The notes beneath the pieces were generated by a model that saw only the letters and a list, made by a program, of their open reading frames with translations, ran no database searches and had not been told where the DNA came from. Shown piece after piece: positions 10,506 to 64,000 of a stretch of DNA of 64,000 nucleotides. Every line of letters begins with the position of its first letter. Within the stretch, counting starts at the first letter, position 1. Origin of the DNA: Acidobacteriota bacterium (GTDB lineage: Bacteria > Acidobacteriota > UBA6911 > RPQK01 > CBDDCF01). The DNA is taken from assembly GCA_965225995.1 (NCBI GenBank), contig CBDDCF010000030.1, positions 36,101-100,100 of the forward strand, given 5' to 3'. Made by a program: the position numbers and the translations under genes.

Positions 10506-10537
10506 GATCCAAATCAGCTCTGAAAAAGCGGGCAGTT

Positions 10538-19403: not shown

Positions 19404-19429
19404 CCCAATATCCTTTACAATGCGGCCTA

Positions 19430-35773: not shown

Positions 35774-36074
35774 AATAACGTACCAATTGTTGGGAGCGCG
35801 ACGCGAGTCAGGTCGAGGCGCGAGGACGAGATTGATGCAGGCCATCTTCGAGCTCCGAGCAACAAAGAGCTGGCCGCGTCTCGCCCCCACCCTACGGGCG
35901 AACGGGGCTTGTTGTACAGCCTGCAAGCTGTAGCTGGCCTGGCCAACAAAATGTTGCGGCCGATCTCTGTGTCGAGAGTCGTCGAAGATGCCGGGTATCG
36001 AACTTCCTCCTCTCTCCTTGACCTCGACTCGCAAGACCCGTTCGCAATGGGCACGTTATTTCGGAATCGCTTGT

Positions 36075-36947
36075 CTAGACCCGATGAACGGTGGCGACAT
36101 AGTGCCTTAGATCGCTGAGGCAGTTGAAGTGCTGGCAGTCATGAAAAACCTCCTCGAGTTCATGAGATTCGAAACCCTGCCCATAGAGCAGAACCGGAAG
36201 CCGATATTCTTCAATCACTTCGGAAAGCGCTTCGATGCCGTCGCTGGGATGAACTTCCCCTGTCGAAACCAGGCAAACCAGATTGACCGGCTCTCTTAGC
36301 ACCATTTCCGCGACCATTCGGAAGGATACCGAACTCCCCAGATTGAGGCACTCCCAGCCATCGGTCTCCAGGATTCTAGCGATTCCATTGACCGTCAGTG
36401 GTCGGAATGAGTCGGGAGTTGCGCAAAGACCCATCTTGCCATTCGGTCGTCGGCGAATCACCTGCGGAAACATATAGCTCATCGACTCTTCGAGGTTATT
36501 GCTGATCAGCCGAATCTGACCTCCCGTAATTTTACCTCCGCGCCTTCTCTGTAACGCCGCCTCCAGGATTGGAACCAGAATTCGGTCATAGATTTCGACC
36601 ACGCCGACTCCCCGCAGGTAGAGCCGTTCCAGCAGTTCTTTGATCTGCATGCGCTGATTTCGAGTCGCCAGATAAAGCAACTGCTTGCGCACTTCTTCGA
36701 AATTCTTCTGATTGAGGAAAATCTCGATGTTGGGATTCTCCCAGTGCTCCGATGTGAGCAGGCCAGTCGTTTCGAAACCCCTCTCCCGTTGAAACTCATG
36801 AATGTCCTGCAAGATGAATCGGCGATGCCCTCCCGGCGTCCGCCGGCAGCTCAGAGAGCCAGAGTCGGCCCAGCGCTTGACCGTTGACTCGCTCACATTC
36901 CACATTTGGGCAACTTCGCGTGTGGTGTAGGTACGACTCAGACTCAT
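36075..36947 (-). CDS. MerR-family transcriptional regulator with C-terminal B12-binding-like (Rossmann) domain
   Basis: N-terminal HTH YTTREVAQMWNVSESTVKRWADSG. C-terminal domain resembles the CarH/LitR B12-binding fold, but the canonical DxHxxG His is not evident. Confidence 0.5.
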   Translation of the reverse strand: MSLSRTYTTREVAQMWNVSESTVKRWADSGSLSCRRTPGGHRRFILQDIHEFQRERGFETTGLLTSEHWENPNIEIFLNQKNFEEVRKQLLYLATRNQRMQIKELLERLYLRGVGVVEIYDRILVPILEAALQRRRGGKITGGQIRLISNNLEESMSYMFPQVIRRRPNGKMGLCATPDSFRPLTVNGIARILETDGWECLNLGSSVSFRMVAEMVLREPVNLVCLVSTGEVHPSDGIEALSEVIEEYRLPVLLYGQGFESHELEEVFHDCQHFNCLSDLRHYVATVHRV

Positions 36948-48675: not shown

Positions 48676-49156
48676 GGGCTGAAGGCTCTGTCATGGGAGG
48701 CTGTTGCCGAACTCGGGGTGAGCTTGTGGTGGTTTTCCGGCGCAACGGGTCTTGGGAATCGAGGGATGTGAACTACCGACGGTTTCAGGCCGGATACCAA
48801 AGCGGCAGCTCAATTTCATAGAGAATCGTCTAGTTTTCGTCAGCGATTCCGCTGCAGCACCAAATCGGCTCGCCGATTTGGAGTGCGCCTAGGAGCCTGT
48901 CCGAGTATTGGGGTGCGGTTGCGAACAGGGGTCTTGTGAGTCGAGCCGCTTTGGTATCCGGCTGAGCGTCGTGATCTTGAGTAGTCCAATAGTCCGGCAA
49001 TAGATGCCATGGCTACAGCGCCAAGGTACCGGCGGCGCGAGAATGTACAAGTCCAGCTGCTGTCGGCTGCCCAACCGGCTTCATCTGTCGCTGTTAACTA
49101 TAGTGTCTATCGATATAGCTTAGTAATCCATAGTCTTGCGTTCTGGAGAGCTTTCT

Positions 49157-49537
49157 ATGAATTCGCCAAGTCGAGATCCTGGAGACCTGATTCCACTGAC
49201 TCCTCTGGTTTTCCATGTCCTGCTTTCGCTGGTTGCTCAGCAAAGCCACGGCTACGCGATTATTCAGGATGTGCGAGAGCGGTCGGGCGGCACGGTCCGG
49301 ATTGGCTCGGGAAGCCTTTACGCGGCCATCCGTCGACTCCTGCAATCGGGTTTGGTGACAGAGGTTGACGAGCGTCCCGCTCCGGAAGCCGATGATGAGC
49401 GCCGCCGCTACTATGCCATGACTCGGCTCGGTCGCCGCGTGGTTCGGGCTGAAACCCAGCGGATGGCGGAAGCGGTGCGTATGGCCGAAGGGCTGCTCCT
49501 GGCCCGCCCGCCGGCAGGGGAGACTTCCGGAGAATGA
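49157..49537 (+). CDS. PadR-family transcriptional regulator (ATG with GGAG RBS; alternative TTG at 49136)
   Basis: LTPLVFHVLLSLVAQQSHGYAIIQDV...LLQSGLV. Confidence 0.7.
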   Translation: MNSPSRDPGDLIPLTPLVFHVLLSLVAQQSHGYAIIQDVRERSGGTVRIGSGSLYAAIRRLLQSGLVTEVDERPAPEADDERRRYYAMTRLGRRVVRAETQRMAEAVRMAEGLLLARPPAGETSGE

Positions 49538-52236
49538 ACTTTCAACCGACCCACCGGAGCCGGATCGAACGGCTGCACCATCGGCTCCTTCAGATACTCT
49601 ATCCGATCCTGTTCCGGCGGGAGTTCGGGGATCAGATCGAAGCTACCTTTCGCGACCTCTGCCGCCAGGCCAAAAGAGAGGTACGCCCTGGATCCTTGCT
49701 CCATGTCTGGATAGGAGAACTCTTCTACCTGGTCACGACAGCAATCTTTGTCAGGTTTGAAGAAGTCAAACGCAGTTTCCCGGCGTCTCCGGCGCCGGAA
49801 CTGTCAGAGAGGAACAAGATGCTCGATTCCATCCTTCAAGATTTCCGTTACAGTCTCCGGTCGATCCTCCGCCAACCCTTCTTCTCCTTGCTCGTGATTG
49901 CCACGCTGGGATTGGGTGTAGGAGCCAACAGTGCCATCTTCAGCGTCGTTAGTGGGACTCTGCTGACACCTCTTCCTTATCCGGGATCGGAGCGGATCGT
50001 GACCCTTTGGGAGGATTTTTCGGCCCAGGGCGGCCCCTCCCAGGAATGGATCGAAGTGCCTAATTTCTTCGAGTGGAAAGAGCATAGCCAATCCTTTGAA
50101 ACGATGTCGGCTTTTGGTTTCAATCAGGTCAATCTGATGTTGGGTGACGAGGCCGAAACGGTTACGGGCGCAGTAGTTTCCCATGATTTCTTCCGAGGTT
50201 TTGGCGTGGAGCCGGCACTGGGTCGCGAGTTTACGTCCGAGGAAGATAGTCCCGGTGCTGAACCGGTGGCGATTCTCTCCCACCGCCTCTGGCAAGAGCG
50301 ATTGGGTGCTGATCCTGAGATTCTGGGACGTTCCATGATGATCAATGATCAGTCGGCCACCGTAATAGGGGTCCTTCCCAAGGGTTTTCAGACTCCTCTC
50401 GCCAACCAGGTAGCGGTTTGGCAACCCGTGAGAATCAGCCCTACTTCGCACGGGCGGAGCAACTTCTTCTTGCAAGGCATCGGCCGGCTGCGAGAAGGCG
50501 TGTCGCTGGAGCGGGTGCGGGTCGAGATGAACTCAATCATGCAGCGGATCGGTCAGGAGTTTCCCAAAGATGCCGGTGTCACGATGCAGGTCATTCCGCT
50601 GTTGGATCTGATCATGCAGCCGGTCAGGACTTCGCTCTGGGCGCTGATGGCTGCCGTTTTTCTGGTTCTGCTTATCGCTTGTGCCAACATTGCCAACTTG
50701 GTGCTGAGCCGGACTGTAATCCGCCAGCGGGAGATGGCGGTGAGAGCTGCGATTGGAGCTGGACGTCAGCGTCTAGTTCGTCAACTCCTGACGGAGAGCA
50801 TGCTCCTGGCCTTGTTTGGTGGAGGGCTTGGGTTGGGGTTGGGCGTGTTGGGATGTAACCTCCTGATCTCGCTGGCACCGCCCAACGTACCCAGACTGGA
50901 TGAAGTCGGTTTGAACACCAGCGTGTTGCTTTTTACGCTAGGTGTCAGTCTGCTCAGCGCTGTGATCTTCGGGCTGGCACCGGCCCTACATGGTTCGCAT
51001 TCGGACCTCAATGCGGCCCTCAATGCCGGGGGGAGGGAAGCCCGAGGGCCGACCGCCGGGAGTCGGTTGCGGTCGGCTTTGATCGTCGCCGAAGTGGCGT
51101 TAGTACTCACCCTCTTGGTGGGATCCGGCTTGCTGCTCCGCAGTTTCGCGCGCCTGCAGCGAGTGGATCCCGGCTTCCGGCCGGAGGGGCTCATCTCTAC
51201 CGGCTTGCGCTTGTCTCCCACCCGCTTTCCCAAGACTGAGAACCTCCGCGGATTCGTGCAGGACCTGGTCTCGCGAATCGAAGGCAATGTCGGGATCGAG
51301 GCGGTCAGTGGAATCTCGGTTCTCCCTCTGGGGGGAAGCGACTCGGACACCGGTTTCTCCATCGAAGGGAGACCCGCTCCGACTCGTCCCCAGGATCAAC
51401 CTGTCGTCTGGTTTCGTCGCACGCTCCCCAAGTACTTCTCTACCATGGGCATTCCTCTACTCCAAGGCAGAGACTTTCGGGACTCCGATCACGCCGATGC
51501 TCCTGGTGTAGTGATGATTAGCGAAGTGGCTGCCGAACGCTATTGGCCGGAGGAAAGTGCTCTCGGAAAAAGGGTCAGATTTGGCTCGAACGGGGCCTGG
51601 AGCACGATCGTCGGAATCGTCCCGGGAATCCGCCATCGAGCCCTGAATCAGATTCCGCGTCCCGAACTTTATTTCCCCTATGCACAACGCCCCGGACGAT
51701 TCGTCAATTTAATTGCGAAGACAGAGTTGCCTACTGCTACAGCTGCCGGGCTGATTCGAGCCGGTATCCGCGAACTGGCCAGCGGGCTCCCGATGCTGGC
51801 CGTCTCGCGCCTCGAGAACCTGGTTGAGGCCTCAATCGGACAGCAACGCTTCATCATGAAAATGACCGGTGGCTGCGCAACACTGGCAGTGGTACTGGCG
51901 GCGGTGGGCATTTACGGAGTCATTTCCTATTCGGTGAGCCAACGGACTTACGAGATTGGCTTGCGCATGGCGCTGGGTGCCCAGCGCTCGACTGTTCTAG
52001 CCATCATTTTGCGCCAAGGATTCCTGCTGACCGTGATCGGAATTGCGATCGGAATTGGGCTCTCCCTGTGGGCAACGAGGTTCATTTCATCGCTGCTCTT
52101 TAATACCAGTTCCACAGATCTTCTGACATTTCTGATGACGGCGACTCTGCTGGGCATTGTCGGCCTGGTCGCTTGTCTGGTGCCCGCCTACCGGGCCACT
52201 CGGATCGATCCCCTGAACGCGCTCCGCTGTGAATAA
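49534..52236 (+). CDS. ADOP-family ABC transporter permease (intact, 900 aa)
   Basis: Same architecture as 45836..48675. Start overlaps the PadR stop. Confidence 0.8.
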   Translation: MNFQPTHRSRIERLHHRLLQILYPILFRREFGDQIEATFRDLCRQAKREVRPGSLLHVWIGELFYLVTTAIFVRFEEVKRSFPASPAPELSERNKMLDSILQDFRYSLRSILRQPFFSLLVIATLGLGVGANSAIFSVVSGTLLTPLPYPGSERIVTLWEDFSAQGGPSQEWIEVPNFFEWKEHSQSFETMSAFGFNQVNLMLGDEAETVTGAVVSHDFFRGFGVEPALGREFTSEEDSPGAEPVAILSHRLWQERLGADPEILGRSMMINDQSATVIGVLPKGFQTPLANQVAVWQPVRISPTSHGRSNFFLQGIGRLREGVSLERVRVEMNSIMQRIGQEFPKDAGVTMQVIPLLDLIMQPVRTSLWALMAAVFLVLLIACANIANLVLSRTVIRQREMAVRAAIGAGRQRLVRQLLTESMLLALFGGGLGLGLGVLGCNLLISLAPPNVPRLDEVGLNTSVLLFTLGVSLLSAVIFGLAPALHGSHSDLNAALNAGGREARGPTAGSRLRSALIVAEVALVLTLLVGSGLLLRSFARLQRVDPGFRPEGLISTGLRLSPTRFPKTENLRGFVQDLVSRIEGNVGIEAVSGISVLPLGGSDSDTGFSIEGRPAPTRPQDQPVVWFRRTLPKYFSTMGIPLLQGRDFRDSDHADAPGVVMISEVAAERYWPEESALGKRVRFGSNGAWSTIVGIVPGIRHRALNQIPRPELYFPYAQRPGRFVNLIAKTELPTATAAGLIRAGIRELASGLPMLAVSRLENLVEASIGQQRFIMKMTGGCATLAVVLAAVGIYGVISYSVSQRTYEIGLRMALGAQRSTVLAIILRQGFLLTVIGIAIGIGLSLWATRFISSLLFNTSSTDLLTFLMTATLLGIVGLVACLVPAYRATRIDPLNALRCE

Positions 52237-52248
52237 GTAGCATTGCTT

Positions 52249-52515
52249 CTAGGATGAAACTTGATTTGTGGGACGGGTATGCCACAGGCTTTCTTGAAGT
52301 TCTCTCCCAGGATGGCATTGAAGTGGTTTCGGAGGTGTGGGAGGGGTCCTTCCCAGGCCGCGAGAGGGCCGTCAGGCCCGAATCTAAAGATTCTATTTTC
52401 AATAGAATCGCCGCCTCAGAAGGCGCCTCCCACGGTTCTGAAACACGGCTTTCCTCTGCCACATCATCCCCCCTTTGTGGCTGACAGGGAGCTCAGTTTC
52501 CAACAATTTCCACCC
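52249..52515 (+). repeat. ~265-bp structured repeat, copy 2, 13 bp downstream of the ADOP permease stop
   Basis: CTAGGATGAAACTTGATTTGTGGGACG... ~85% identical to 25270-25527. An internal hairpin carries compensatory substitutions between the copies. Confidence 0.6.
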
Positions 52516-52785
52516 TTCCTGCGAGCTTCCTCCCAGGGATTCTCGCCACTCTTCCCGAGGTCCGTGCTACGCTCCTACGGAGGAGTATGGTAGTCTCTGA
52601 AAATTCCTAACCGGTTTATTATCAACGGTGTATCAAACTAGAGTCCAGGCTGGAGGGGGATTTGATCGAGCGGCTCGACGCTCGTATTGGGGGTTTGGTT
52701 TCACGGAATTCAGGCAGGACTGCCCTGCGGGCTTTTTTTTTGCGAAGCGCCAGTTTCAGTCTCGAAAAACAGGAGAGCGGAAGCC

Positions 52786-53937
52786 ATGTCAGTCACAGTC
52801 TTGAGTCAGCTCGAAGTTGAGCGCTACAGTCGACATCTGCTTCTGCCGGAGGTAGGAGTCCAGGGCCAGTTGCGCCTGCGTAACTCGAGCGTACTTTGCA
52901 TCGGTGCCGGTGGACTCGGATCACCCTTGGCTCTGTACCTGGCAGCCGCCGGTGTAGGGCGCCTCGGAGTCGTCGACTTCGATTCCGTCGAATACAGCAA
53001 CCTGCAACGCCAAATCCTGCACTCGACGGCAGATGTGGGGCGCTCAAAGTTGGCTTCTGCTCGCGATTCGATTGAGGCCATCAATCCTGAAATCCGGGTC
53101 GAGACTTTTGAAACCAGACTCAGCTCCCAGAATGCTCTTCGACTCTTCCGCGACTTTGACTTGGTGGTGGATGGGACAGACAACTTTCCTGCTCGCTACC
53201 TGATCAACGATGCCTGTGTCCTGAGTGGCCGGCCCAATGTCTATGGCAGTATTTTCCGTTTTGAAGGACAGGCCTCGGGCTTCGCCCATGACGGCGGCCC
53301 CTGCTACCGCTGCCTCTACCCCGAGCCTCCTCCTCTCGGCTTGGTGCCTTCCTGTGCCGAGGGAGGAGTTCTCGGAATCTTGCCGGACCTGATCGGGGTG
53401 ATCCAGGCGACTGAAGCTCTGAAGCTGCTGCGCGGTCGAGGAGAGAGTCTCAGCGGACGCCTTCTCTTGATCGATGCTCTGGGCATGAAATTTCGTGAAT
53501 TGCGCGTGCGACGAGATGCCGATTGCCCGGTCTGTGGTGACCATCCAACGATTCTCGAACTGATCGACTACGAGGCTTTCTGTGGAATCGGAGTCGAGGA
53601 TGACACCAGCGCAGACGATGTTCCTGAGATCACGGCTACCCAGCTACACAGGAAGCTGCAAAGGCAACCTGAGCTTCGACTGCTCGATGTGCGCAACCCC
53701 AACGAGCTGGAAATCTGCAGCCTGGAGGGTGCTCTTACGATTCCGCTCGACCAGTTGTCCGCTCGCACCGGAGAGCTTGATCCAGAGTGGAACGTGGTTG
53801 TCTTTTGTCGGTCGGGAGTGCGCAGCCTTCGCGCCATCAAGCAGCTCCAGGAGCTTGGATACTCCCGTCTGACCAATCTCAAAGGCGGAATTCTGGCCTG
53901 GGCCGATGAGATAGATCCAGAAATGGCCAAGTATTGA
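52786..53937 (+). CDS. Molybdopterin/thiamine-synthase adenylyltransferase (MoeB/ThiF-like) with C-terminal rhodanese domain (MoeZ-type)
   Basis: GAGGLGSP nucleotide loop, CxxC pairs (CYRC ... CPVC), C-terminal rhodanese with CRSGVRS active-site loop. Confidence 0.75.
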   Translation: MSVTVLSQLEVERYSRHLLLPEVGVQGQLRLRNSSVLCIGAGGLGSPLALYLAAAGVGRLGVVDFDSVEYSNLQRQILHSTADVGRSKLASARDSIEAINPEIRVETFETRLSSQNALRLFRDFDLVVDGTDNFPARYLINDACVLSGRPNVYGSIFRFEGQASGFAHDGGPCYRCLYPEPPPLGLVPSCAEGGVLGILPDLIGVIQATEALKLLRGRGESLSGRLLLIDALGMKFRELRVRRDADCPVCGDHPTILELIDYEAFCGIGVEDDTSADDVPEITATQLHRKLQRQPELRLLDVRNPNELEICSLEGALTIPLDQLSARTGELDPEWNVVVFCRSGVRSLRAIKQLQELGYSRLTNLKGGILAWADEIDPEMAKY

Positions 53938-54417
53938 GAGGTTGTCCATGATTTCCCGCAACTGGAGAATTCGATGTGGTCCTTGGCGGGCATTGGATGA
54001 GCAATGCGGATACCTTCGGCCTGGCCGTTGGACCCTGGGCCGCGCTGCGCTCCGCGGCTCTGATAGGGTGCCCGGAAGCTCAGTTGGAGTCGATCAGCGG
54101 AGCCTGTAATTGGAACGCTGATTCTCAGAGCCCCGAGCCCGCGAGGGGTATCGGATGCCCGCTCCTTGCTCCAGAGAGACGATTTGCTAATGCTTTCCTC
54201 TCCCAAGTCCAACTCGCCCTGGGCTGATTCGGAAGGGCAAAGGCACGGGGGAGCAGCCGACAAGGCTGCAATCCAGCTGGTGAGAGTCCAGCCGTGTGAA
54301 TTACTCGTTCACACACGTATCGATGCCGCTGCTCGGGGCAGGTAACCAACCGAGATTTGCGTGGTGTAAACGGCCTGGCCGTCCTTCAAAAGAAGCGGCG
54401 GGAGCAACCTGGAGGTC

Positions 54418-54468
54418 TAGCCCGGATAATGCACGAGTTTTCGGCTGCAGGGCCGGGATCATCCGCTC
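54418..54468 (-). repeat. MITE-like element, copy C (reverse orientation)
   Basis: CTAGCCCGGATAATGCACGAGTTTTCGGCTGCAGGGCCGGGATCATCCG. The first 20 nt resemble the IS1380-like terminal repeat at 58598 (CTAGCCCGGATTATGCAAGA). Confidence 0.4.
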
Positions 54469-55132
54469 TGACTGCGTTACCCACCCTCGGGCTCCTCGAC
54501 AGAGGGCACGACTATGACTGCAGCCCGGAAATGTGCCCCCCTGGTGAAGTTGCAGAGTTGGGGATGTGTGGTGAGCCGAACGTCTCCCGTGTCACGTAAG
54601 GCCGGAGTGTCTTGGGAAGCAACGAGTAGCCGGAGGAAAGGTCATGGTCGCCAACCGGACTTGGGAAATCCGACCGTTCCGGATGAAACGGGGGGCTTGC
54701 GGAAACGTGAGCAATGGTGGAACTAGGAACCCGCCGCACAACCGAAAGGGTGCGGGTCGGAAACTCTCCACCTAAGGCTACGCGCGTCGTACTGCTATCC
54801 CAACCAGGGGTTGCCCGTCTGAGGGGAGCCCTTGCCAATATGAACTTGATGCCATGTGCTCAGTTCATAAAGTGGCGTAAACCACTGATGATTTCATAGT
54901 TCTCTCCCTTCGGACATCAGGGATCCTACCTGGCAACCCTCCAGAATACGGCAACGGAACGTGGGAGCTCTTCCAGTTTCTTTCCTGAATGAGCCGAGGG
55001 AACCTCGGAAGCACTGCTAGTACTTTGAAAGCCGGAACCCGAATGTTATAAAAACGATATAGATCGACCGCCGGTGCTTTGCTTCGAGCGCTGAACAACA
55101 GAGCTCGTCAGCGGCCCTTGGGAGTTATTACA

Positions 55133-56902
55133 ATGATGCAACGTGGACTGTCAATACTCGTACTGCTCTGGGGGATCTCTTGTGGTTCGGGTTTGCCGAC
55201 TGATTCACCGAGGGACGATTCCCTGCAAACTTTGCTCGACGAAGCCTGGGAATTCCGGCTCCGCGAGGACCCTGTTTTTGCGACATCTATAGGCCGCCAT
55301 GAATACGACGACCGGCTGGCTTCTGTCGCCTTGTCAGACTTGGAGCGGCGGGTGCTGTTCTGGCGAGATATCTTGTTGCGTCTGGAAGACTTCGATGGCG
55401 ACGGCTCACTCTCGGACGCTGCTCGTCTCAACTACGATTTGTTCCGGCGCCAGGTCGAAGATCGGATCCAGTCGTTTGAGTTCAAAGAGTACCTGATGCC
55501 CTTGACCGCCGAGGCGGGATTCCACACCCGCTTCGCTTTTCTCCCCCAGAACATGCCGTTTCAAACGACCCACGATTACCAGAGCTACATATCCCGTCTG
55601 GAAGCCTTCGGAGAGTTGACCGATCAGCACATCGTTCACCTGACGACCGCCGTTGAGGAAGGCTATGCGTTGCCGCGAGAGGTGTTGGATGGGTACGAAG
55701 GGACCATCCAATCCCATGTGGTTTCGAACATCGACGAGAGCGTCTTCATGGCCCCCTTTCAGAGTTTTCCCGATGGAGTTTCCGAAGCGGATCGAACGGC
55801 TCTGGTTGAGCAAGGGCGGCACGCTGTCTCGACCGCGGTTATTCCAGCTTACCAGCGTTTTTTGGAGTTCTTCCTGAATCGCTATCGGCCGGAGTCCCGC
55901 CAGAGTCTGGGGGCATCCGAGCTTCCCAACGGCGATGCCTATTACCGTTACTTGATCCGCCTCCACACGACGTTGGATTTGAATGCCGAAGAAGTGCACC
56001 AACTCGGGCTCCAAGAAGTTTCTCGACTCCAGAGTGAGATGGGGCAGGTGATTGTCAAGGTTGGGTTCCGAGGGGATCTACAAGCTTTCATCCGCTCTCT
56101 CCGCACCGATCCCCGTTTTTACGCCCAGACAGGCGAGCAGCTTCTCAAGGAGGCAGCCTGGATAGCCAAGACGATGGACGGCAAACTCCCTGCTCTGTTC
56201 AAGACCCTCCCGAGGCGGCCTTACACGGTCGAGCCCGTGCCCGATCATATCGCCCCCAAATACACGGCTGGCCGCTACGTTGGAGCTCCCCAGGGCAGCA
56301 CGCGGCCAGGAATCTACTGGGTCAACACCTACTCTCTGGAAAGTCGCCCTCTCTATTCATTGACGGCTCTCACCCTGCACGAAGCTGTTCCTGGTCATCA
56401 CCTGCAGAACGCGCTCCGTCAGGAGCTCGAAAGCCTTCCTGATTTTCGGCGTTACTCCGGGGTCAATGCCTACGGCGAGGGATGGGGGCTCTATTCCGAA
56501 TGGCTGGGACTGGAAGCCGGCTTCTATACTGATCCTTACGACAATTTCGGTCGGCTCACCTACGAGATGTGGAGGGCTTGCCGGCTGGTGGTCGATACCG
56601 GTCTGCATTCCAAGGGTTGGAGTCGCCAACAAGCGATTGACTTCATGGCTGCGAATACGGCGCTATCTCTGCACGAGATTGGGACGGAGACGGATCGATA
56701 TATCTCCTGGCCGGGTCAGGCGCTGGCCTACAAGATGGGCGAGATCAAGATCAAAGAACTCCGCCGGAGAGCGGAGGCCGCCCTGCAGTCAGACTTTGAC
56801 GTGCGCGAGTTCCATGACGAGATCCTCCGCCACGGACCGCTTCCTCTCACGCAATTGGAAAACCAGATAGAACGTTGGATCGAGGAGACCGCCGCCCGCT
56901 GA
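55133..56902 (+). CDS. DUF885-family lipoprotein (putative metallopeptidase-like)
   Basis: Lipobox LLWGISCGSG; conserved LHEAVPGHHLQ motif, characteristic of DUF885. Confidence 0.7.
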   Translation: MMQRGLSILVLLWGISCGSGLPTDSPRDDSLQTLLDEAWEFRLREDPVFATSIGRHEYDDRLASVALSDLERRVLFWRDILLRLEDFDGDGSLSDAARLNYDLFRRQVEDRIQSFEFKEYLMPLTAEAGFHTRFAFLPQNMPFQTTHDYQSYISRLEAFGELTDQHIVHLTTAVEEGYALPREVLDGYEGTIQSHVVSNIDESVFMAPFQSFPDGVSEADRTALVEQGRHAVSTAVIPAYQRFLEFFLNRYRPESRQSLGASELPNGDAYYRYLIRLHTTLDLNAEEVHQLGLQEVSRLQSEMGQVIVKVGFRGDLQAFIRSLRTDPRFYAQTGEQLLKEAAWIAKTMDGKLPALFKTLPRRPYTVEPVPDHIAPKYTAGRYVGAPQGSTRPGIYWVNTYSLESRPLYSLTALTLHEAVPGHHLQNALRQELESLPDFRRYSGVNAYGEGWGLYSEWLGLEAGFYTDPYDNFGRLTYEMWRACRLVVDTGLHSKGWSRQQAIDFMAANTALSLHEIGTETDRYISWPGQALAYKMGEIKIKELRRRAEAALQSDFDVREFHDEILRHGPLPLTQLENQIERWIEETAAR

Positions 56903-57260
56903 GGCTCCCTGAGACAGCTGCGACGCTTGATCTCGGTTGTCAACGACAGCTCCAGACTCGCTTCGCACCCATCTGCTTTGCCTCTTGCGATGCAAGTCTT
57001 GCTTTGTAGGAGTGAGATGTGCTGACGAACTCCGCTTTCCTGGAAGGAGAGCTGGAGGAAGAATGCTCGGGGTATGAGGGCGGCTGGCGCCCAGGCCTGC
57101 TGGCTGGGGCGGAGCCGTGTAAGGATGACCTCCCAGGATGTCATCCGGAATCAATCTCATCCACCCGACTTCGCTGTCAGCCAGCGGTGCTCTCGCAAAA
57201 TCAACAAACCGAGGGCGATCCAGAGAGTAATCAGCAGAAGATTCCCGATCGCAAACCCCG

Positions 57261-58496
57261 TCACTTGCAAAGGCAGGACCTGCGTCCCCAGGTACACGAA
57301 CAGGCGGAGAGGACATCCCCAGCCCGTACAAAGAATGTGTCCAGCGCCTGCTTGGCCTTATACTTTTCCTCTCTCGTGGTGGGTAGCCAAAGCAGATGGC
57401 GGGCCGTGTTCATGATCGAGTAGTCACTCGAATTCTCAGCCGACTTGGCCCATCGGATGATGGAAAACCCCACTCCAGCGGCAATCACCCCATAGGCTCC
57501 AAGTGCGATCACCGGAAGGGCCAGTAGTACGCCTGCCAGGCTGGCATACTTGACCAGGCGGGAAACCAGGAAGGCCTGAATGGTCACTGCCATGATGTTG
57601 ACCCAGAAGAAGAAGTTCCCATAGAAGGCGCCTATGAACGCCCCTACGTCGAGAGCTGGATTGGAGGCTTGCAGAGCAGCAGCCTGCCGGGTCACCATCT
57701 CGGCTAGGATGTATTCGCCGGTGGTATTGACGAGGTTGAGGAGGATTAACAAGAGAGCAATCAGCGAAATGTAGCGGCTCTTGAAGACCAGCGCGAAACC
57801 GTTTCCTGGAGCCAGCACCTTGTGAGCCGGAGCCGAAGCTCGCGGGTTTCGTTCTTCGCGCCGATCGATGAGTAAGTACAGACCCACCGTGACGAGCAAA
57901 ATAGCGGCTGATAGGTGCATCATCAAAGCTGGCCGGATCCCCGATTCGAAGAGTTTGCTAGCCAGGAAAGCACCCACCGGAGCCCCTGCAGTCAGACCGA
58001 CTCCGATGATTGGGAAGAGCCGATTCCCAGCTCCTTCGCTGTAGATGTCGTTGGCGTAAGACCAGAACTGGGCGATGATGGCCAGGCTGAAGAATCCCAC
58101 CCAGATGAAGAACATCGTTCCCACATAGGGGACGCCGGCAGAGACCGCCAGGGCAAACATTTCAATATTGATGAGGAAGAAAAGAGTCACTCCAAGGATC
58201 AGCTTCATGCGATCGACCCGCGAGGCGAACCAGCTATAAGCCGGAATGAATGCCATCAAGATGAGGGCCTGGCTGGCTGCCGCATAAGACTTTCCGATCG
58301 CACCACCCTCGAGCAGAATGAGCGGTTCCCGCAGGGTCTTGAGAATGTAATAACAGACCAGAACAAGAAAGATGTTGGAAGACATCAGGAGGACCGTTCT
58401 CGACTCTCCTGCCTGAACCTCGCTGAAGACCGCCAACAGACGGGAGAGAATTCCTCGGCGCTCCGGATCATCCCGTGAAATCTGGGAAGTGTCCAT
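57261..58496 (-). CDS. TLC/NTT-like nucleotide (ATP/ADP) transporter family membrane protein; C-terminus possibly truncated
   Basis: 10-11 predicted TM helices. N-terminal region (LLMSSNIFLVLVCYYILKTLREPLIL) resembles the first TM/K-x-x-L(R/K)D motif of Tlc/Npt proteins. Confidence 0.45.
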   Translation of the reverse strand: MDTSQISRDDPERRGILSRLLAVFSEVQAGESRTVLLMSSNIFLVLVCYYILKTLREPLILLEGGAIGKSYAAASQALILMAFIPAYSWFASRVDRMKLILGVTLFFLINIEMFALAVSAGVPYVGTMFFIWVGFFSLAIIAQFWSYANDIYSEGAGNRLFPIIGVGLTAGAPVGAFLASKLFESGIRPALMMHLSAAILLVTVGLYLLIDRREERNPRASAPAHKVLAPGNGFALVFKSRYISLIALLLILLNLVNTTGEYILAEMVTRQAAALQASNPALDVGAFIGAFYGNFFFWVNIMAVTIQAFLVSRLVKYASLAGVLLALPVIALGAYGVIAAGVGFSIIRWAKSAENSSDYSIMNTARHLLWLPTTREEKYKAKQALDTFFVRAGDVLSACSCTWGRRSCLCK

Positions 58497-58597
58497 TAAC
58501 CTCTCATTTCTCGGAGTGGAAAGTATCCCGAGTATGCGGGGAAGGCGCCAAGTACACAAGACGGAGTGCTTGCCGTGCCGCCCTACGTTTGGCTACT

Positions 58598-60252
58598 CTA
58601 GCCCGGATTATGCAAGAACCGTAGGCCGGAGTTGAAAAGAGAGTCGAAAGTGGCCTAAATCGGGAGATCGAAGGTGCGACAGGCGGATTTTCGAGGGATC
58701 TCTGTGGACGAGCCGTGTGGAGTAGGTGGGGGAGTGAATTTCAGACGGAGTTGGGCCTGAATGAGTGTCCTAAACGATCATTCGGGAGCTAGGAGAGGCT
58801 AGCTGGAGTTAAGGCGATTCAAGACGAGGAGGAAAAGGGCCTGCTCCGGAAAGCCGGAGGAAAGATGGGCCCAGATGCGTCGAGTGGTTTGTCGAACCCG
58901 CGCCCCAATTTTGAGGACCCGGCGACGCAAAGTTTCGATTTCGAGTTTCTGCCAGGGGGTTCCATACAGATAATCGCGGAGTCGGACGAACATCTGGTAA
59001 GCCAGCCCATGCAGGAGAAGTCGAAACTGGTTGGCCAGGAATCGATGACAGCTCAGCCGATCCATACTCAGATGGTTCTTAAAAGCCTTGATGAAGTTCT
59101 CCGACTGTCCTCGATCGGTGTAGTGATCATAAAGGGACTGGGAAGAGAGATCGTCTCGGTTGGTGACCACAAAGCGACGATTGATCCCCCGATGGTCGAC
59201 TTCCACTTTGACGATGACGCGACGGAATCGATCCCAGCTGCTGGCTCGATAAAGAAACTCGTCAAACTGACGCTGTTTTTCCTCGAACTCGTCGAACCTG
59301 AGTCGAGTCGACTCGAGCATCGGCTCGACCATCCGTTGCCGGCGGGGGTTCCGGCTTAACCCAATGACATATTGGAGTTTGTTCTCTTCAGATTCACAGA
59401 ACTCGTAGAGCCGAGGCGTGGCAAAGCCGCTGTCGGCCCGGATCTCAATTTGAAGTTCCTTGCCAACTTCTCGTCGAATGGCTTTCACGATTCGTTTCAG
59501 AATAGGAACGATGTGAGAGGCAGCCCCCTTGTTTCCAGGCCTCAATACGACAGTGACCAGGTCCCCCGTAACGGCATCGAAGATCAGCCAAGGATGCAGA
59601 ATGTGGTTTCGGTAATAGCCGTGGTAAAAAGAGAATTCCTGTTGGCCGTGAGTGTGGTCGTCAGTACTGTCCAGGTCCAAGATGACCGGGTCGGGGCGTC
59701 TCTTCTTCAGCGAGCGGACATAACGCTGTAGGAACCCCCGGCTCAGACGCATGAGATCCTTCTTGCTGACAGAGTTTTCCAAACGGGAAAAAGTTGCCTG
59801 GGTGGCCAAGTCAGGATCGCTCTCAGGTAACTGATCACAGACGGTCTTGAGCATGGGATCCGAGCGCAGCGTGTCCGCGTCATTGCAGTCTTCGTACCCG
59901 GCAACGATCTGAAAGACTCGTTGTCGGATCAGCTGTAACTGCTCATGACGAACGTAGCGTTGGTCCCGGCTATCCGCAATACACGAACTGAAGTCCTCGC
60001 AGAGTCGATCTTGCCGATCCAGGGAACCAAACAACAGCCATCCGGCATCGGAAGTCAGGTTCCCACCATCAAAACGAGCCGTGATTTGTGTGTGCGAGTG
60101 AAATGCCAGGGTGGTCTGACAGACTGGGTTTGACATTGCCGTAGTTCTCCGATAAGGATTTGTTTAATAAACCCTTTTATATCAGAGAGATACGGCATTT
60201 TTTCTGGTCCCCAATCCACTCGAATCCGGATCTCTTGCATAATCCGGGCTAG
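58598..60252 (-). mobile_element. IS1380/IS4-like insertion sequence (1655 bp) with perfect 20-bp terminal inverted repeats
   Basis: CTAGCCCGGATTATGCAAGA at 58598-58617 and its exact reverse complement at 60233-60252. If CTAG is the target duplication, the TIR is the 16 bp beginning with CC. Confidence 0.75.
58799..60136 (-). CDS. DDE transposase (IS1380/IS4-like, DDE_Tnp_1)
   Basis: 445 aa; DLDSTDDHTHG and DSGF acidic motifs. Confidence 0.75.
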   Translation of the reverse strand: MSNPVCQTTLAFHSHTQITARFDGGNLTSDAGWLLFGSLDRQDRLCEDFSSCIADSRDQRYVRHEQLQLIRQRVFQIVAGYEDCNDADTLRSDPMLKTVCDQLPESDPDLATQATFSRLENSVSKKDLMRLSRGFLQRYVRSLKKRRPDPVILDLDSTDDHTHGQQEFSFYHGYYRNHILHPWLIFDAVTGDLVTVVLRPGNKGAASHIVPILKRIVKAIRREVGKELQIEIRADSGFATPRLYEFCESEENKLQYVIGLSRNPRRQRMVEPMLESTRLRFDEFEEKQRQFDEFLYRASSWDRFRRVIVKVEVDHRGINRRFVVTNRDDLSSQSLYDHYTDRGQSENFIKAFKNHLSMDRLSCHRFLANQFRLLLHGLAYQMFVRLRDYLYGTPWQKLEIETLRRRVLKIGARVRQTTRRIWAHLSSGFPEQALFLLVLNRLNSS

Positions 60253-60706
60253 AACACGATACAGGCGATTCTCAACCGTTTCCCTGGAAGGATAGCTGTC
60301 GGGGGCCACATCAAAAGCGGCCACTCAGGGCCGGGTCAAAACCGGCCAGTGATCTAGTAGTTATATCCTCGCCTTGAACACATTTCAATCCTTGTGAAGG
60401 CCTCCGTGAGGAGGCTGTACGGCCTGCTGGTCGGGGTGGGTTTGCTGTGAGCCCGTGAGCAGGGCGTTCGTTGACCGGTTCGGCCGGTTCTTGGACCGCG
60501 AAGCTGGTCGATCCGGAATCTTCTTTCTTGTTGGTATGTCCAGTAGCAGAAGCGGTGCGTAACTGTGGGAAACGAGCGAGCACCGCGAGCCGTTTTCCAA
60601 GCGCTGTGGGAACGGTGGAAGAACCGATGCATGGGCCAGCTTCTCGATGTGACCGTTCTCCACGGTTTCCATAGCGCGGCAGTTTCCACGGCTTTCCGGT
60701 TCCGGA

Positions 60707-61480
60707 TCATTTCTTTTCTCCTCGCTTCTTGGTCGACTTCTCCCGTTGTTGACGTTCGTAGAGGCGATAGCTCTTGCCTCGAATGAAGGTCACCTCCGAA
60801 ACGTGTAGAAAACGATCCAGCAGCGCAGAGGTGGCCGCCGTGTCTCCTCCCAGCATCGCTCCCCAGTCCTCGAGTGGTCGGTTCGAACTGATAATGGTCG
60901 AGGTCTTCTGGTAGCGGCGATGCAGGATCTCCAGCAGATCTTCAGCCGCCGAGTCGGGCACTCTCCGAAGTCCCAGATCCTCGATGATCAGCAGCGGGAT
61001 CCGGGTCATCTCTGCAATGTAGGGTCGGCGCATCCCGGTGGCAGTGGCTTCAGCGATGTCCTCGAGCAGATCGAAAGCCGACTTGTACTGTACCCGGTGA
61101 CCCGCTTCCACAGCCTTGATTGCCACCGTGATGATCAGATGTGTTTTGCCGACTCCCGCCTGACCGATGACCAACCAGCCGCGACACTGTTCGATGAATC
61201 GGCAAGTGGCCAGATCAAAGATCTGCTGCCGATTGATCGAGGTGTTGAAAGAGAACCTGAAGTCCTCCAAGAGTTTGCGTTCCGGGAACTGGGCCTGGCG
61301 GAGACATCGCTCCAGCAAACGGTCGCGCCGGCGGGTGAGTTCGTCGTCGATGAGCAGCTCAAAGAACTCCTGATGAGAGAGACGGCCCTGGATGGCTTGT
61401 TGCAGCCGTACGTCAAAGACCTGGGCCAGGCCCGAGAGCCTGAGGTGGCGAAGTTTCCGTTCCAGTTCCAATGAGATCAT
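60707..61480 (-). CDS. istB: IS21-family helper ATPase IstB
   Basis: Walker A GQAGVGKTHL, Walker B LLIIEDLG. Confidence 0.9.
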   Translation of the reverse strand: MISLELERKLRHLRLSGLAQVFDVRLQQAIQGRLSHQEFFELLIDDELTRRRDRLLERCLRQAQFPERKLLEDFRFSFNTSINRQQIFDLATCRFIEQCRGWLVIGQAGVGKTHLIITVAIKAVEAGHRVQYKSAFDLLEDIAEATATGMRRPYIAEMTRIPLLIIEDLGLRRVPDSAAEDLLEILHRRYQKTSTIISSNRPLEDWGAMLGGDTAATSALLDRFLHVSEVTFIRGKSYRLYERQQREKSTKKRGEKK

Positions 61481-62973
61481 TCCGGGTCTCCTGAGCGGGG
61501 AGTGAGTTGGTACTCAGACAGCGGCCGAATCAACTCGTGGTCGGAGGTGAATAGAGAGCGTTGCGGCACGTCTAGTCGCTTGCATAAAGCCACCAGGGTC
61601 CGATAGCGGAAGGCATCGTGAGAGAGAGCCTTGGCACAGGCTTCATTGACGACCGTGGCCGGGTAGCGTCGGGTCAAAGAGATCATGCCTCTCAGGAGCC
61701 GGTAGGCCAACACGTCGCGCACCTCCAGGGCTCGCACTGCCCAGCGGTGAGCATCAGAGCCAATCCTGCGGGCTTGCCCGAGCAGCTGACTCTCAGTTCG
61801 ATAATGAGCGTAGCGTTTGCGTTCCGGAAGATGTGTGGGTTCGGTCTGGAACTGGCCGGGTTTCCGCTTGGGATGCAGGACGACTTGCTGCTCTCGGAAA
61901 AAGACTCGGACGATCCGGTCATCCCAGTGCACAGCCACTTCACAGCCAAGCAGATGATTGGGTACCGAGTAGAAGGCTCGATCGACTTCGATGTGGCCAT
62001 CCACGGAGACCGTGCGACGGCCGGTACGGAAGAAACTGAAGCGGGAGTCGGGTAGAGGTCGAAGACCCTTCTGTTCCTCCAGGAATCGGGGCCAGACCTG
62101 CTGTTTGGTGGTGCCGTGGATGCGCTGTCGGGCGACCCGCTCGTTCCAGTTCCGTAGATGCTCATTCTGCTCGGCCAGACTCTCGAACCGTCTGCCCTTC
62201 AGGGCACTGGACTTTGTATATCCGATCGTCCTTTCGACTTTTCCATTCTCATTTGGAGAGCCAGGATGGATGGGAATGATGGCAAAACTATAGTGACGGC
62301 CCAGCGCACTGAAAACGGCGTTGATCTCGGGATCGACAAAGCAGGCTCGCGTGACTCCGGCCTTCAGGTTATCCAAGCGAACCACGTCTACCGAGCCACC
62401 AAACCAGTGGAAGGCATTCTCGACACAACGGACGAAGGTCTCCAGATCCTGCCGCCAGACGACCTCCTCATACGAGTGGCGGGAATAACACAGCACTGCC
62501 TTGAACAGGTGGGGGCGACGGTACCGGCCCGATTCGGTTTGTGTCAGAGCTGCTTTGCCAAAGTCCACCTGCATGTCCCGACCGGGTGGAGTTTCCACCC
62601 GAGCGAAGACTCGTGGACTCTCGGCTTTGAGCTTTCTGCAAAACCGTTTGACGGAGTTATACGCTCCATCGAAGCCATGCTCCAAAACCAGGTCTTGCCA
62701 GATCCGCTTGGCATGCAACCCCAGCTCAAGCTTCTTCTGGATTTCCTCCCGAAAAGGCTCACACGAGCTGCGCCGACCCGGGGGCCGCTTTGGCCGCTTT
62801 TGCTCACCCGAGCCGGGGGCCACTTTGGCCGGTTTTGAATCTCGGGCCGGATCATGTCGGGCTACAGTCTCTCGACGAACTCCTGTTTCTCGCTCGATCC
62901 GCCGATACGACCAGCCCAGCTTCAATAGCGCCACAACCGTTTGTTTCTTCTCCATTTTCAGTACATTGACCAT
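61477..62973 (-). CDS. istA: IS21-family transposase IstA
   Basis: HTH + DDE integrase core, 498 aa, 4-bp overlap with istB. Confidence 0.9.
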   Translation of the reverse strand: MVNVLKMEKKQTVVALLKLGWSYRRIERETGVRRETVARHDPARDSKPAKVAPGSGEQKRPKRPPGRRSSCEPFREEIQKKLELGLHAKRIWQDLVLEHGFDGAYNSVKRFCRKLKAESPRVFARVETPPGRDMQVDFGKAALTQTESGRYRRPHLFKAVLCYSRHSYEEVVWRQDLETFVRCVENAFHWFGGSVDVVRLDNLKAGVTRACFVDPEINAVFSALGRHYSFAIIPIHPGSPNENGKVERTIGYTKSSALKGRRFESLAEQNEHLRNWNERVARQRIHGTTKQQVWPRFLEEQKGLRPLPDSRFSFFRTGRRTVSVDGHIEVDRAFYSVPNHLLGCEVAVHWDDRIVRVFFREQQVVLHPKRKPGQFQTEPTHLPERKRYAHYRTESQLLGQARRIGSDAHRWAVRALEVRDVLAYRLLRGMISLTRRYPATVVNEACAKALSHDAFRYRTLVALCKRLDVPQRSLFTSDHELIRPLSEYQLTPRSGDPE

Positions 62974-63068
62974 CGGCGCATCCTACGAGGGATGCAGCTC
63001 TCAATGGCTCCTGAAAATGGCCGGTTTTGAAGTGGCCCTCACTGGCCGCTTTTGGGTGGCCCCTGACA

Positions 63069-63595
63069 TCCACGGATAGAACCAGCGCATTGTCGGGCGG
63101 ATCCATATACAGCCCCACCACATCGATTACCTTTTCGGCGAAGTGAGGATCGTTGCTGATTTTAAAGTTACGGACTCGATGCGGCTTCAGGTCGGCTGCC
63201 TTCCAGATCTGGGCGACTTGATGTTTGCTCACTCCGGAGTGTTCGGCCATCAGTCGCACACTCCAGTAGGTCGATTCCCGTGGGATGCGTTCAACGGTGG
63301 CTTTGAGAATAGCTCGCACATTGGCATGCGATAGCTTCCGCGGAGGGCCCGATCGAGGTCGATCCTCCAGTCCTGACACTCCCTGCTCAAGATAGCGCCT
63401 GCGCCACATTTGCACACTCAGTAGCCGCTTGGAGAGCCTTTCCGAAACTTCAGTCGCCGTCAGCCCCTGGCCGCAAGCCAGAATTATTTGAGCCCGTTCG
63501 GCCAAGACTCGATCGGTCTTGGAAGCCCGCAACCAGGACTCCAGTATTCTTCGATCTTGTTCGGGTAGCTTTAGTCGAATGTGGGGTCTTGCCAT
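63069..63595 (-). pseudogene. IS630 transposase, N-terminal ~175 codons only
   Basis: MARPHIRLKLPEQDRRILESWL...PPDNALVLSVD, then the sequence diverges at the IS21 junction. Confidence 0.7.
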
Positions 63596-63653
63596 GCCCA
63601 ACAATAGCAAACTACCCTGACATTTAACATCGGGAACTTTCCGGACAGTGCAC
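63069..63653 (-). mobile_element. Truncated second copy of the IS630-family element (right half only)
   Basis: 63073-63653 is ~98% identical to 20010-20593, including the terminal repeat CGGACAGTGCAC at 63641-63653. The IS21 insertion ends at 63068. Confidence 0.75.
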
Positions 63654-63763
63654 TGGGCACCGACAACGAGGCCAAGTGGCAATCAGTTTCCAGTTTCGGA
63701 GACTTGACTCGGCTGTAAGCAAGTTGCAAGGGAGAGGTGCCTAGGACCTGTTATCATTCGGCT

Positions 63764-64000
63764 ATGCTGAAGGTGGGTCTCACGGGCGGAATTGCGTGTG
63801 GCAAGAGCTTTGCCCGCAAGGAGTTTCAGAAGCTTGGCGTACATGGAATCGACTCCGATCGCATCGGGCACGAGGTGATCGGCAAGGATGGCTCTGCTTT
63901 CCAAGCCGTGGTTGAGGAATTCGGAGCCTCAATTCTGGATGCTTCCGGCGGCATAGATCGCCGTAAATTGGGAGTCCTTGTCTTTGGCGATGATGCGTTA
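63764..64000 (+). CDS. coaE: Dephospho-CoA kinase (CoaE), 3'-partial at window end
   Basis: MLKVGLTGGIACGKSFARKEFQKLGVHGIDSDRIGHEV... P-loop GLTGGIACGKS, typical of CoaE. No stop before the window end. Confidence 0.6.
   Translation, partial: MLKVGLTGGIACGKSFARKEFQKLGVHGIDSDRIGHEVIGKDGSAFQAVVEEFGASILDASGGIDRRKLGVLVFGDDAL

Follow-up and report, generated by a model that had tools for sequence, protein, structure and literature searches.

Insertion sequences between the TLC-type transporter gene and coaE

Three independent transposable elements are piled up between a gene for a TLC-type transporter and coaE in the window, the whole 64,000-nucleotide stretch of Acidobacteriota DNA that was analyzed (Table 1). 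An IS1380-family element (58598-60252), an IS21-family element (60297-63068) and a 585-bp right part of an IS630-family element (63069-63653) were located almost to the base where the initial annotation had placed them. Of the "nested" cluster described there, one part held, as the IS21 element adjoins the IS630 half directly, but the IS1380 element lies 44 bp away and is adjacent rather than nested. The elements were present in multiple copies, 98.8-99.9% identical, in other assemblies, so the pattern is not due to chance, and the host genome is IS-rich.

Table 1. Features of the insertion sequence cluster and of the intact IS630 copy used as reference (window coordinates).
Feature	Position	Strand	Details
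IS1380-family element, IS21-family element and IS630 right part, side by side	58598-63653		
CTAG, probable left copy of 4-bp IS1380 target duplication	58598-58601		
IS1380-family IS	58602-60248	-	16-bp TIRs CCCGGATTATGCAAGA at 58602-58617 and 60233-60248
IS1380-family DDE transposase gene	58799-60136	-	445 aa; family models
CTAG, probable right copy of IS1380 target duplication	60249-60252		
Spacer between IS1380 and IS21, apparently native	60253-60296		44 bp
IS21-family IS	60297-63068	-	2772 bp; ends TGT...ACA; without flanking duplication
istB-side TIR	60297-60348		two direct 22-bp motifs (CAAAAGCGGCCA / CAAAACCGGCCA half-sites)
Non-coding IS21 tail downstream of istB	60349-60706		
istB, AAA+ helper ATPase	60707-61480	-	257 aa; NF038214, PF01695
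Interval holding the X/Y switch of diagnostic bases (crossover or assembly switch)	60749-61122		inside istB
istA, DDE transposase	61477-62973	-	498 aa; NF033546, rve, Mu-transpos_C_2
Tandem duplication in 5' part of istA	62773-62842		35 bp; TIR-like half-sites
istA-side TIR	63018-63068		
IS630-family right part	63069-63653	-	585 bp; right inverted repeat and N-terminal helix-turn-helix part
TCCACGG, putative surviving copy of the 7-bp IS21-into-IS630 duplication	63069-63075		
Dispersed repeat outside IS630 right end, upstream of coaE	63654-63745		~90 bp
Reference full IS630-family element	19430-20593	-	1164 bp; transposase 19456-20550; NF033545 281 bits (cut-off 100)

The IS1380 transposase passed the NCBIfam equivalog model transpos_IS1380 (NF033539; 374 bits, cut-off 180) and matched Pfam DDE_Tnp_1_4 (PF13701; E=1e-139). 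Its best plasmid relatives, annotated as IS1380 family, shared ~39% amino acid identity, and an exact look-up of the transposase sequence returned no record. Elements of this family have ends starting with CC, TIRs of ~15-20 bp and a 4-bp target duplication (range 4-5 bp). Like IS1380 of Acetobacter pasteurianus and ISEcp1, the element encodes one ~445-aa DDE transposase within ~1.65 kb and has CC ends and probably a 4-bp duplication, whereas its low identity to annotated members and its palindromic probable target CTAG set it apart. The perfect 20-bp terminal repeats proposed earlier were recovered, with one extra base, as 21 bp (58597-58617 and 60233-60253). More likely, the outer CTAG on each side is a 4-bp target duplication, leaving an element proper of 58602-60248 with 16-bp repeats. 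As CTAG is palindromic it reads as an inverted repeat too, so that only an empty site would separate duplication from repeat, and a search for an empty site of the IS1380 insertion found none. In a relative (L049) two IS1380-type ends abut around a single CTAG, and L090 and L093 have the CTAG in common and diverge directly beyond it. The same insertion, 99.0-99.8% identical, was found in L090, L093, L095 and L003, the last being locus X of a public ENA contig (7.44 Mb, ~99.8% identical to the window) that served as the comparison genome. The 44-bp spacer with the same two junctions occurred at locus X and in a third sample (L095) and was absent from L090 and L093.

The IS21 element begins TGTCGG and ends CTGACA, and the ~50-bp terminal repeats with internal motifs noted initially proved to be imperfect 52-bp inverted repeats (84.6% identity) with two ~22-bp direct motifs per end. 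Each end holds the motif GGGCC-N-CAAAA-N-CGGCCA, and two further half-sites lie in the 35-bp tandem repeat of istA, one unit of which is deleted in two copies (L080 and L081). The istA and istB genes overlap by 4 nt (61477-61480). IstA scored 266 bits against NF033546 (cut-off 160), with rve, rve_3 and Mu-transpos_C_2 domains, and IstB 226 bits against NF038214 (cut-off 200; PF01695 E=1.5e-61). With only 38.6% identity between IstA and its best plasmid-borne relatives, the element represents a new IS species. The open reading frames in the tail past istB are arginine-rich and overlapping, and an Rfam scan of 58000-64000 for structured RNA in this tail returned nothing at E<=0.1. Against L001, L002 and L003 the window copy showed 99.7-99.9% identity, and an alignment of eight full-length copies contained few differing sites; a scan of JGI metagenomes for the left end gave no match. 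Consecutive istA and istB with a 4-nt overlap, TGT...ACA ends, long TIRs with repeated sub-motifs and 7-bp duplications at sister copies are as in other members of the IS21 family (IS21 of plasmid R68.45, IS5376, IS408). Unlike these, the element has an unusually long tail after istB (~410 bp) and, within istA, a 35-bp tandem repeat bearing half-sites that resemble its ends, and its window copy is without duplication.

The last element was correctly recognized as the right part of a second IS630 copy: 63069-63653 aligned with 20009-20593 at 98.8% identity over 585 bp, and the missing 579 bp were found nowhere else in the window. Its transposase is cut at about residue 180, the start of the DDE domain, and the reading frame continues into IS21 (62852-63682), with HTH_29 and HTH_32 as its only domains. 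The full copy resembles the IS630/Tc1-mariner superfamily in its 1164-bp length, ~30-bp inverted repeats, TA within CTAG and HTH plus DDE_3 transposase, and has TA directly at either end (19428-19429 and 20594-20595), whereas the copy next to IS21 consists of the right 585 bp only. The outer flank of this fragment is TG in the window and at a second locus of the ENA contig (Y), and TA at X. A further departure from the superfamily is that all copies seen adjoin one ~90-bp repeat, suggesting a target narrower than plain TA; the repeat was found, at 78-93% identity, beside each of the IS630 right ends examined and is probably the preferred IS630 target.

The missing duplication and the probable entry of IS21 into IS630

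As the initial annotation had observed, no target duplication surrounds the window IS21, the flanks (GGATAGC on the istB side, TCCACGG on the istA side) having no direct repeat in common, although a duplication of 4-8 bp would be expected in the IS21 family and relatives mostly have 7-8 bp. Perfect 7-bp duplications flank three sister copies on the 7.44-Mb contig (L001, CCTAGCT; L081, GAGTTGG; L083, TGAGGAG) and fix the exact ends of the element. A 6-nt likeness of the two window flanks (GGATAG, at a 5-nt offset) was weighed as a possible aberrant duplication and judged coincidental, given these exact ends. Of 66 copies in a relative whose IstA is 84% identical, ~80% had 5-9 bp duplications without a target consensus and 12 had none, suggesting that loss through later recombination is common. 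The element thus does make duplications, and the window copy was rearranged afterwards.

The state of the IS630 element at the time of insertion is indicated by a metagenome scaffold from another sample (L085), in which the flank at the istB end of IS21, CCGTGGACGAG, is the reverse complement of 20005-20015 and comprises the TCCACGG duplication plus four more IS630 bases. The chance probability of this 11-nt match among the ~14 flanks examined is ~3e-6, and it argues that IS21 first entered an intact IS630. The proposed insertion into a truncated IS630 therefore stands as to the host element and not as to its truncation, since the IS630 copy was most likely intact at entry. Beyond 11 nt the L085 flank departs from IS630, and we read it as a remnant rather than the intact reciprocal junction; the left IS630 half joined to the istB end would read ...CTCGTCCACGG followed directly by TGTCGGGGG. 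No partner with the missing IS630 half or with matching duplications (GGATAGC, TTCTAAT) was present among the six IS21 copies retrieved from the 7.44-Mb contig.

The window as a hybrid of two loci

The junction of IS21 with the IS630 half was found at two loci of the 7.44-Mb contig, X (L003) and Y (L002), 692.7 kb apart in direct orientation, with the IS630 break point identical in both; the interval between them covers 1,480,166-2,170,095 of this contig (ctg125702). Comparison of these assembled contigs revealed that the window corresponds to X on the left side of IS21 and to Y on its right. Locus X matches window positions 49261-63737, with X-specific bases in the IS630 half, and Y matches 60297-64000; the two loci have only 60297-63737 in common, at 99.0%. 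Diagnostic bases in the window are of Y type at 62379, 61122 and all sites of the IS630 fragment, and of X type at 60749, 60638, 60437 and 60426. They switch once, within istB, in keeping with flanks that match X on the left and Y on the right and as expected of a recombinant. Site 61465 departs from this two-block pattern, unless the ENA Y copy has a private change there. The caveat of mis-assembly raised in the initial annotation applies to the linkage across the repeat and to neither junction, each of which is present in independent assemblies (60296/60297 in L003 and L095; 63068/63069 in L002 and L003). The missing duplication is older than the X/Y exchange, since both parental loci already lack it.

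Gene order at this site varies between strains, as expected of the rearrangement hotspot or scar suggested initially. Synteny comparison of five assemblies of the species, at least 99.4% identical, gave five arrangements beyond the TLC gene and IS1380. On the contig of a 98%-identical homologue (L090), an IS110 adjoins the IS1380 element. Outgroup synteny was considered as a guide to the ancestral arrangement and set aside, as L090 has a different order again and no neighborhood is conserved around a 67%-identical homologue from a complete genome.

The window arrangement would thus be that of a homologous recombinant between two IS copies, produced either by a ~693-kb deletion or excision or by an assembly chimera across the 3.4-kb repeat. 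Of the two mechanisms offered in the initial annotation, adjacent deletion and recombination between IS copies, it is the latter that the X/Y hybrid, the single switch in istB and the differences in arrangement support. We consider the best overall explanation, with good though not full confidence, to be insertion of IS21 into an IS630 copy followed by homologous exchange, the window being the product of an X/Y crossover. In the proposed sequence, an IS630 copy would have inserted at a TA inside the dispersed ~90-bp repeat, and IS21 would then have inserted into it, duplicating TCCACGG and cutting the transposase gene at the start of the catalytic domain. Homologous recombination among near-identical IS21 (and IS630) copies may next have replaced the istB-side DNA, parting the window IS21 from the remaining IS630 half and from the second copy of the duplication. 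Finally, a single crossover in istB (60749-61122) between the direct IS21 plus IS630-half modules 692.7 kb apart would have linked the TLC/IS1380 flank of the first to the coaE flank of the second. The comparisons establish which elements are present, where exactly they end, that a duplication is missing, that the window is an X/Y hybrid and that strains differ at this site; from them we infer both the order of events and the biological origin of the hybrid (a deletion or an excised 693-kb circle, as opposed to an assembler path through the 3.4-kb repeat). Between X and Y, 7 of the 585 positions of the IS630 arm differ, and the flanks outside are only ~78% similar. The same IS21/IS630 junction in two different IS630 copies makes reciprocal recombination alone insufficient, and a copying step, by gene conversion or composite transposition, would be needed.

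Alternatively, elements and junctions could be real while the contig switched from X to Y within a 3.44-kb, 99%-identical repeat, the TLC and coaE sides lying 693 kb apart in the cell as on the ENA contig. IS21 would then connect to the PMT_2 side and coaE to the sigma-factor side. The X-left, Y-right linkage occurs only in the window among the assemblies compared, X and Y are separate on the 7.44-Mb contig, and the contig names of other assemblies of the species give coverages of 3x-9x; this combination of unique linkage and low coverage makes a chimeric join plausible, and the order Y, X(?), Y, X around 61465 and 61122 could be a mixed consensus. Yet the switch is single and clean except for one site private to the ENA Y copy, ~34 X/Y differences would normally be resolved by long reads, real structural variation at the locus is abundant among strains, and as far as the edge of IS1380 the window agrees at 100% identity with a short-read contig from a separate run, indicating that the window's strain exists as such. 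We regard a chimera as rather unlikely, if a serious contender. Less probable still is that an IS630 with IS21 inside, having retained its two ends, was moved in trans by an IS630 transposase to a second ~90-bp repeat, both left IS630 arms being lost later through IS21-IS21 recombination. Such mobilization would account for the same internal junction at X and Y. In its favor, the high-identity unit common to the two loci stops precisely at the right inverted repeat of IS630 and at the IS21 terminus, all IS630 copies adjoin one repeat family, and both the window and L082 carry intact genes for IS630 transposase. Against it, the IS630 arms of X and Y show fourfold greater divergence than the IS21 parts (1.2% vs 0.29%) and are mosaics relative to other IS630 copies, for which independent IS630 copies are a better fit; two further independent left-arm losses would be required, and a complete IS630::IS21 composite was not seen.

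Intramolecular transposition of IS21 appears improbable. Here the istA end of an IS21 lying 44 bp from IS1380 would have attacked a nearby IS630 and deleted the DNA between, including the left IS630 half, without making a duplication. The missing duplication, the junction exactly at the IS21 terminus, the istA ends of three of six ENA IS21 copies abutting an IS630 fragment without duplication, and the failure to find a reciprocal partner among these six copies are all consistent with such an event. It would, however, never create the L085 flank with its second copy of the 7-bp duplication and four IS630 bases, and two independent attacks on one nucleotide in two IS630 copies are hard to reconcile with the random target choice of the relative. 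In addition, IS21 elements move by cut-and-paste or form cointegrates via abutted ends and are not known to be classical replicative transposons. Two related candidates were rejected: a cointegrate-type insertion that would have split its duplication between the two outer, or the two inner, ends of these loci (X and Y), as neither flank pair matches, and site-specific IS21 insertion as the cause of the shared break point, as the 66 copies of the 84%-identical relative have no consensus.

Significance for genome rearrangement

The preferred reading, exchange between IS21 copies, resembles the large IS-mediated deletions and inversions of the E. coli long-term evolution lines, Shigella and Bordetella, where direct, near-identical IS copies act as portable homology and one crossover removes an interval, leaving a single hybrid IS without matching duplications. 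The present case differs in that two elements, IS21 and half an IS630, together make up the repeat, in that the proposed interval is large (693 kb or 9% of the genome), and in that the event is deduced from assembly comparison rather than observed. The IS21 family reportedly drives replicon fusion and rearrangement. Both the element families and the mechanism are already known, and the scar is real but unremarkable: a textbook case rather than a discovery, in which new species of three known IS families in a dispensable intergenic spot provide portable homology for rearrangements.

The module of IS21 and IS630 right arm, bounded exactly by the IS21 terminus and the IS630 inverted repeat, occurs at at least two loci with unrelated flanks, and in each of the independent cases (X/Y, L082 and L087) the 5' region of IS630 is directed into istA. 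It is conceivable, though we think it very unlikely, that the module is not a passive scar but a copied unit, spread either when IS630 transposase mobilizes a composite or through templated gene-conversion deletions, or else a selected arrangement in which an IS630 promoter would drive istAB. If such a promoter does drive istAB, these copies would actively drive large rearrangements. At this place the assemblies of the uncultured lineage differ by ~693 kb, and users of these genomes should treat the join as unverified. With parental loci, a crossover interval and a duplication remnant, the site offers a well-resolved example of fast reshuffling in IS-rich soil bacteria.

Composition and boundaries of the cluster

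ORFs were listed for 58300-64000, and repeats were searched inside this region and against the whole window (see table). The initial annotation had described an IS1380-like element with perfect 20-bp terminal repeats, an IS21 element with ~50-bp terminal inverted repeats and, from 63069, the right ~585 bp of a second IS630 copy at ~98% identity, a description that our alignments and profile searches bore out. All four transposition proteins scored above the curated cut-offs of NCBIfam equivalog models: the IS1380 transposase (374 bits versus 180), IstA (266 versus 160) and IstB (226 versus 200) of IS21, and the transposase of the full IS630 copy (281 versus 100), with Pfam backing these family assignments. 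As the best annotated plasmid relatives were 38.6% (IstA), 39% (IS1380) and 63% (IS630) identical, the three elements are, judged by sequence, undescribed species and new members of known families.

Principal features of the cluster and its surroundings (window coordinates)
Feature	Position	Remarks
IS1380 inverted repeat	58597-58617 / 60233-60253	perfect, 20/21 bp; encloses 445-aa ORF, minus strand
IS21 inverted repeat	60297-60348 / 63018-63068	imperfect, 52 bp, 84.6%; encloses two overlapping minus-strand ORFs, 498 and 257 aa
IS630 fragment	63069-63653	right 585 bp; 98.8% identity to 20009-20593 of the full copy
Full IS630 copy	19430-20593	1164 bp, TA flank at both ends
~90-bp repeat, dispersed	63654-63745	partial copy at 3498-3540
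MITE-like element	35756-36077	~320 bp, palindromic, CTAG close to each end
TLC-type ATP/ADP translocase gene	57261-58496	minus strand; frameshift near 57306
Second IS21-family element	~8146-10577	minus strand; istB 8257-9021, istA 9018-10505; without nucleotide similarity to the cluster IS21

An exact-protein look-up of IstA led to a 7.44-Mb ENA contig (ERZ28763718:ctg125702) ~99.8% identical to the window. There, IS21 copies at L001 (a clean insertion), L081 and L083 are flanked by the 7-bp duplications CCTAGCT, GAGTTGG and TGAGGAG, respectively, which fix the boundaries of the IS21 to the base and show that a 7-bp target duplication is normal for it. The outer CTAG on either side of IS1380 is probably a 4-bp duplication: the two ends of a relative in an Acidobacteriota MAG (L049) abut around one CTAG, and L090 and L093, assemblies of the same species as the window, have the CTAG in common and diverge directly past it. 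The joined right and left ends in L049 (~8820-8870) resemble a tandem dimer or circle-junction relic.

As had been noted, the window IS21 has no target duplication (left flank ...GGATAGC, right flank TCCACGG...). The remaining 579 bp of the IS630 had no other occurrence in the 64-kb window. The ORF starting in the IS630 fragment encodes helix-turn-helix domains only and reads through into IS21, the IS630 ORF being cut at ~residue 180, the start of the DDE_3 domain. Around the full IS630 copy its own target is tandemly repeated over a short stretch, ACAATGCGGCCTAGTGCAC... (19419-19431, 20594-20621), and the sequence directly outside the right end of the copy begins GTGCAC, as does the end of the IS itself. 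A 35-bp tandem duplication in the 5' part of istA (62773-62842) carries half-sites similar to those of the terminal repeats; one unit is gone in one ENA copy (L080/L081), shifting the frame to give a 447-aa IstA. The 410-bp non-coding IS21 tail matched no Rfam family, and the IS21 end had no match in JGI metagenomes.

All IS630 copies examined (window, L002, L003 and two in L082) have the ~90-bp repeat directly beyond their right inverted repeat, at 78-93% identity. The repeat may serve IS630 as a favoured target, or it may bear a promoter ahead of genes such as coaE. Copies of the MITE-like element adjoin it in L003 and L082. Compared with a 446-aa homologue of 98% identity (P0001), the translocase gene has lost 1 nt (GCC CTG to GCCTG), a frameshift that replaces the last ~45 residues; since the ENA contig and a short-read Logan contig carry the identical sequence, it is not a long-read error.

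A hybrid of two loci

An exact look-up of the TLC-type gene left of the cluster identified locus X (L003, ~1.47 Mb on the ENA contig), with the order TLC, IS1380, 44 bp, IS21 and IS630 half; beyond these come the ~90-bp repeat in diverged form, a MITE-like element and a PMT_2 gene rather than coaE. Locus Y (L002, ~2.17 Mb) has the order sigma-factor gene, IS21, IS630 half and coaE. The two have only 60297-63737 in common (window coordinates; 99.0% identity), and both run in reverse on the ENA contig, which makes the two modules direct repeats, 692.7 kb apart (IS21x at 1,477,394-1,480,165, IS21y at 2,170,096-2,172,868). The window matches X to the left and Y to the right. Among sites distinguishing X from Y, the entire IS630 half, 62379 and 61122 are Y-type in the window, and 60749, 60638, 60437 and 60426 are X-type; the difference at 61465 is peculiar to the ENA Y copy. 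Read from these bases, the window IS21 is an X/Y hybrid with a single switch within istB, at 60749-61122.

Homologous recombination between the X and Y direct repeats would yield exactly this hybrid, with 693 kb deleted or excised. The hybrid would equally arise from an assembler path switch within the 3.4-kb repeat, and the linkage of the window across that repeat should be treated as provisional. Of the two origins initially proposed, recombination between IS copies is favoured by the X/Y hybrid, and an adjacent deletion made by IS21 is the less favoured.

Origin of the IS21/IS630 junction

Because X and Y both already lack the duplication and have IS630 cut at the identical nucleotide, the other IS630 half was lost before the X/Y exchange. 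In L085, a scaffold that comes from a different study, this IS21 is bordered at its istB end by CCGTGGACGAG, the reverse complement of 20005-20015, comprising the predicted 7-bp duplication and the next four IS630 bases, and then an unrelated gene. With ~14 flanks inspected, the probability of matching 11 nt in this way by chance is ~3e-6, and the match indicates simple insertion of IS21 into an intact IS630, whose left arm would have been taken out or exchanged afterwards. In L082, a third ENA copy, the IS21 borders a different IS630, with the join elsewhere (~63526) and likewise no duplication, and on a short-read contig (L087) the istB end lies within IS630 at ~63285. None of the six ENA copies retrieved proved to be a partner IS21 with matching duplications.

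A related IS21 (IstA 84% identical, same terminal 40 nt) is present in at least 70 copies in one Acidobacteriota MAG. Of 66 copies with both ends, ~80% had duplications of 5-9 bp (mostly 7-8) of unrelated sequence and 12 had none, and a quarter of the flanks lay within other repeats, a census that points to more or less random target choice in this clade, with frequent landing in other repeats and frequent later loss of the duplication. The copies in this MAG (CBDCOR01, L005-L079) are 99.8-99.9% identical, a massive recent expansion that includes some internally deleted derivatives.

Given such targeting, IS21 is unlikely to have struck one and the same nucleotide independently in two IS630 copies. 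The IS630 arms of X and Y differ at 7 of 585 sites, are mosaic relative to other IS630 copies, and have outside flanks only ~78% alike. The junction must have been copied between the loci, either by ectopic gene conversion, with homology supplied by IS21 to one side of the junction and by IS630 to the other, or by IS630 transposase moving an IS630::IS21 composite that then lost its left arm. The identical junction in two IS630 copies is the sole unexplained point.

Strain-to-strain variation

Further assemblies of the same species (at least 99.4% identity) differ in content at the cluster site. L090 has an IS110 immediately past IS1380; L093 has an IS1182/IS5-like element within IS1380 and a different IS21-family element further on; and L095 shares the IS1182/IS5-like insertion with L093 and the 44-bp/IS21 junction with the window, and has an IS3 located 28 nt inside IS21. 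Junction 60296/60297 was seen independently in L003 and L095, and junction 63068/63069 in L002 and L003. The synteny comparison that the initial annotation had suggested gave the X-left/Y-right hybrid against the ENA contig and differing content in L090, L093 and L095; an outgroup comparison was uninformative. A second strain-polymorphic site lies at ~48867-48889, with an IS3-family element in L090 and a further locus (L091) and a second IS1380 copy in L093. The latter assembly also carries a copy of the second IS21-family element ~750 bp from the cluster IS1380 and, past IS1380, a tRNA-like 3' half (GGTTCAAGTCCTACC; ~17050-17100).

With five arrangements in the five assemblies compared, the region merits its designation as a rearrangement hotspot. 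The cluster is real and its first interpretation essentially right; it fits known IS biology throughout, and the mechanism of rearrangement is classical.
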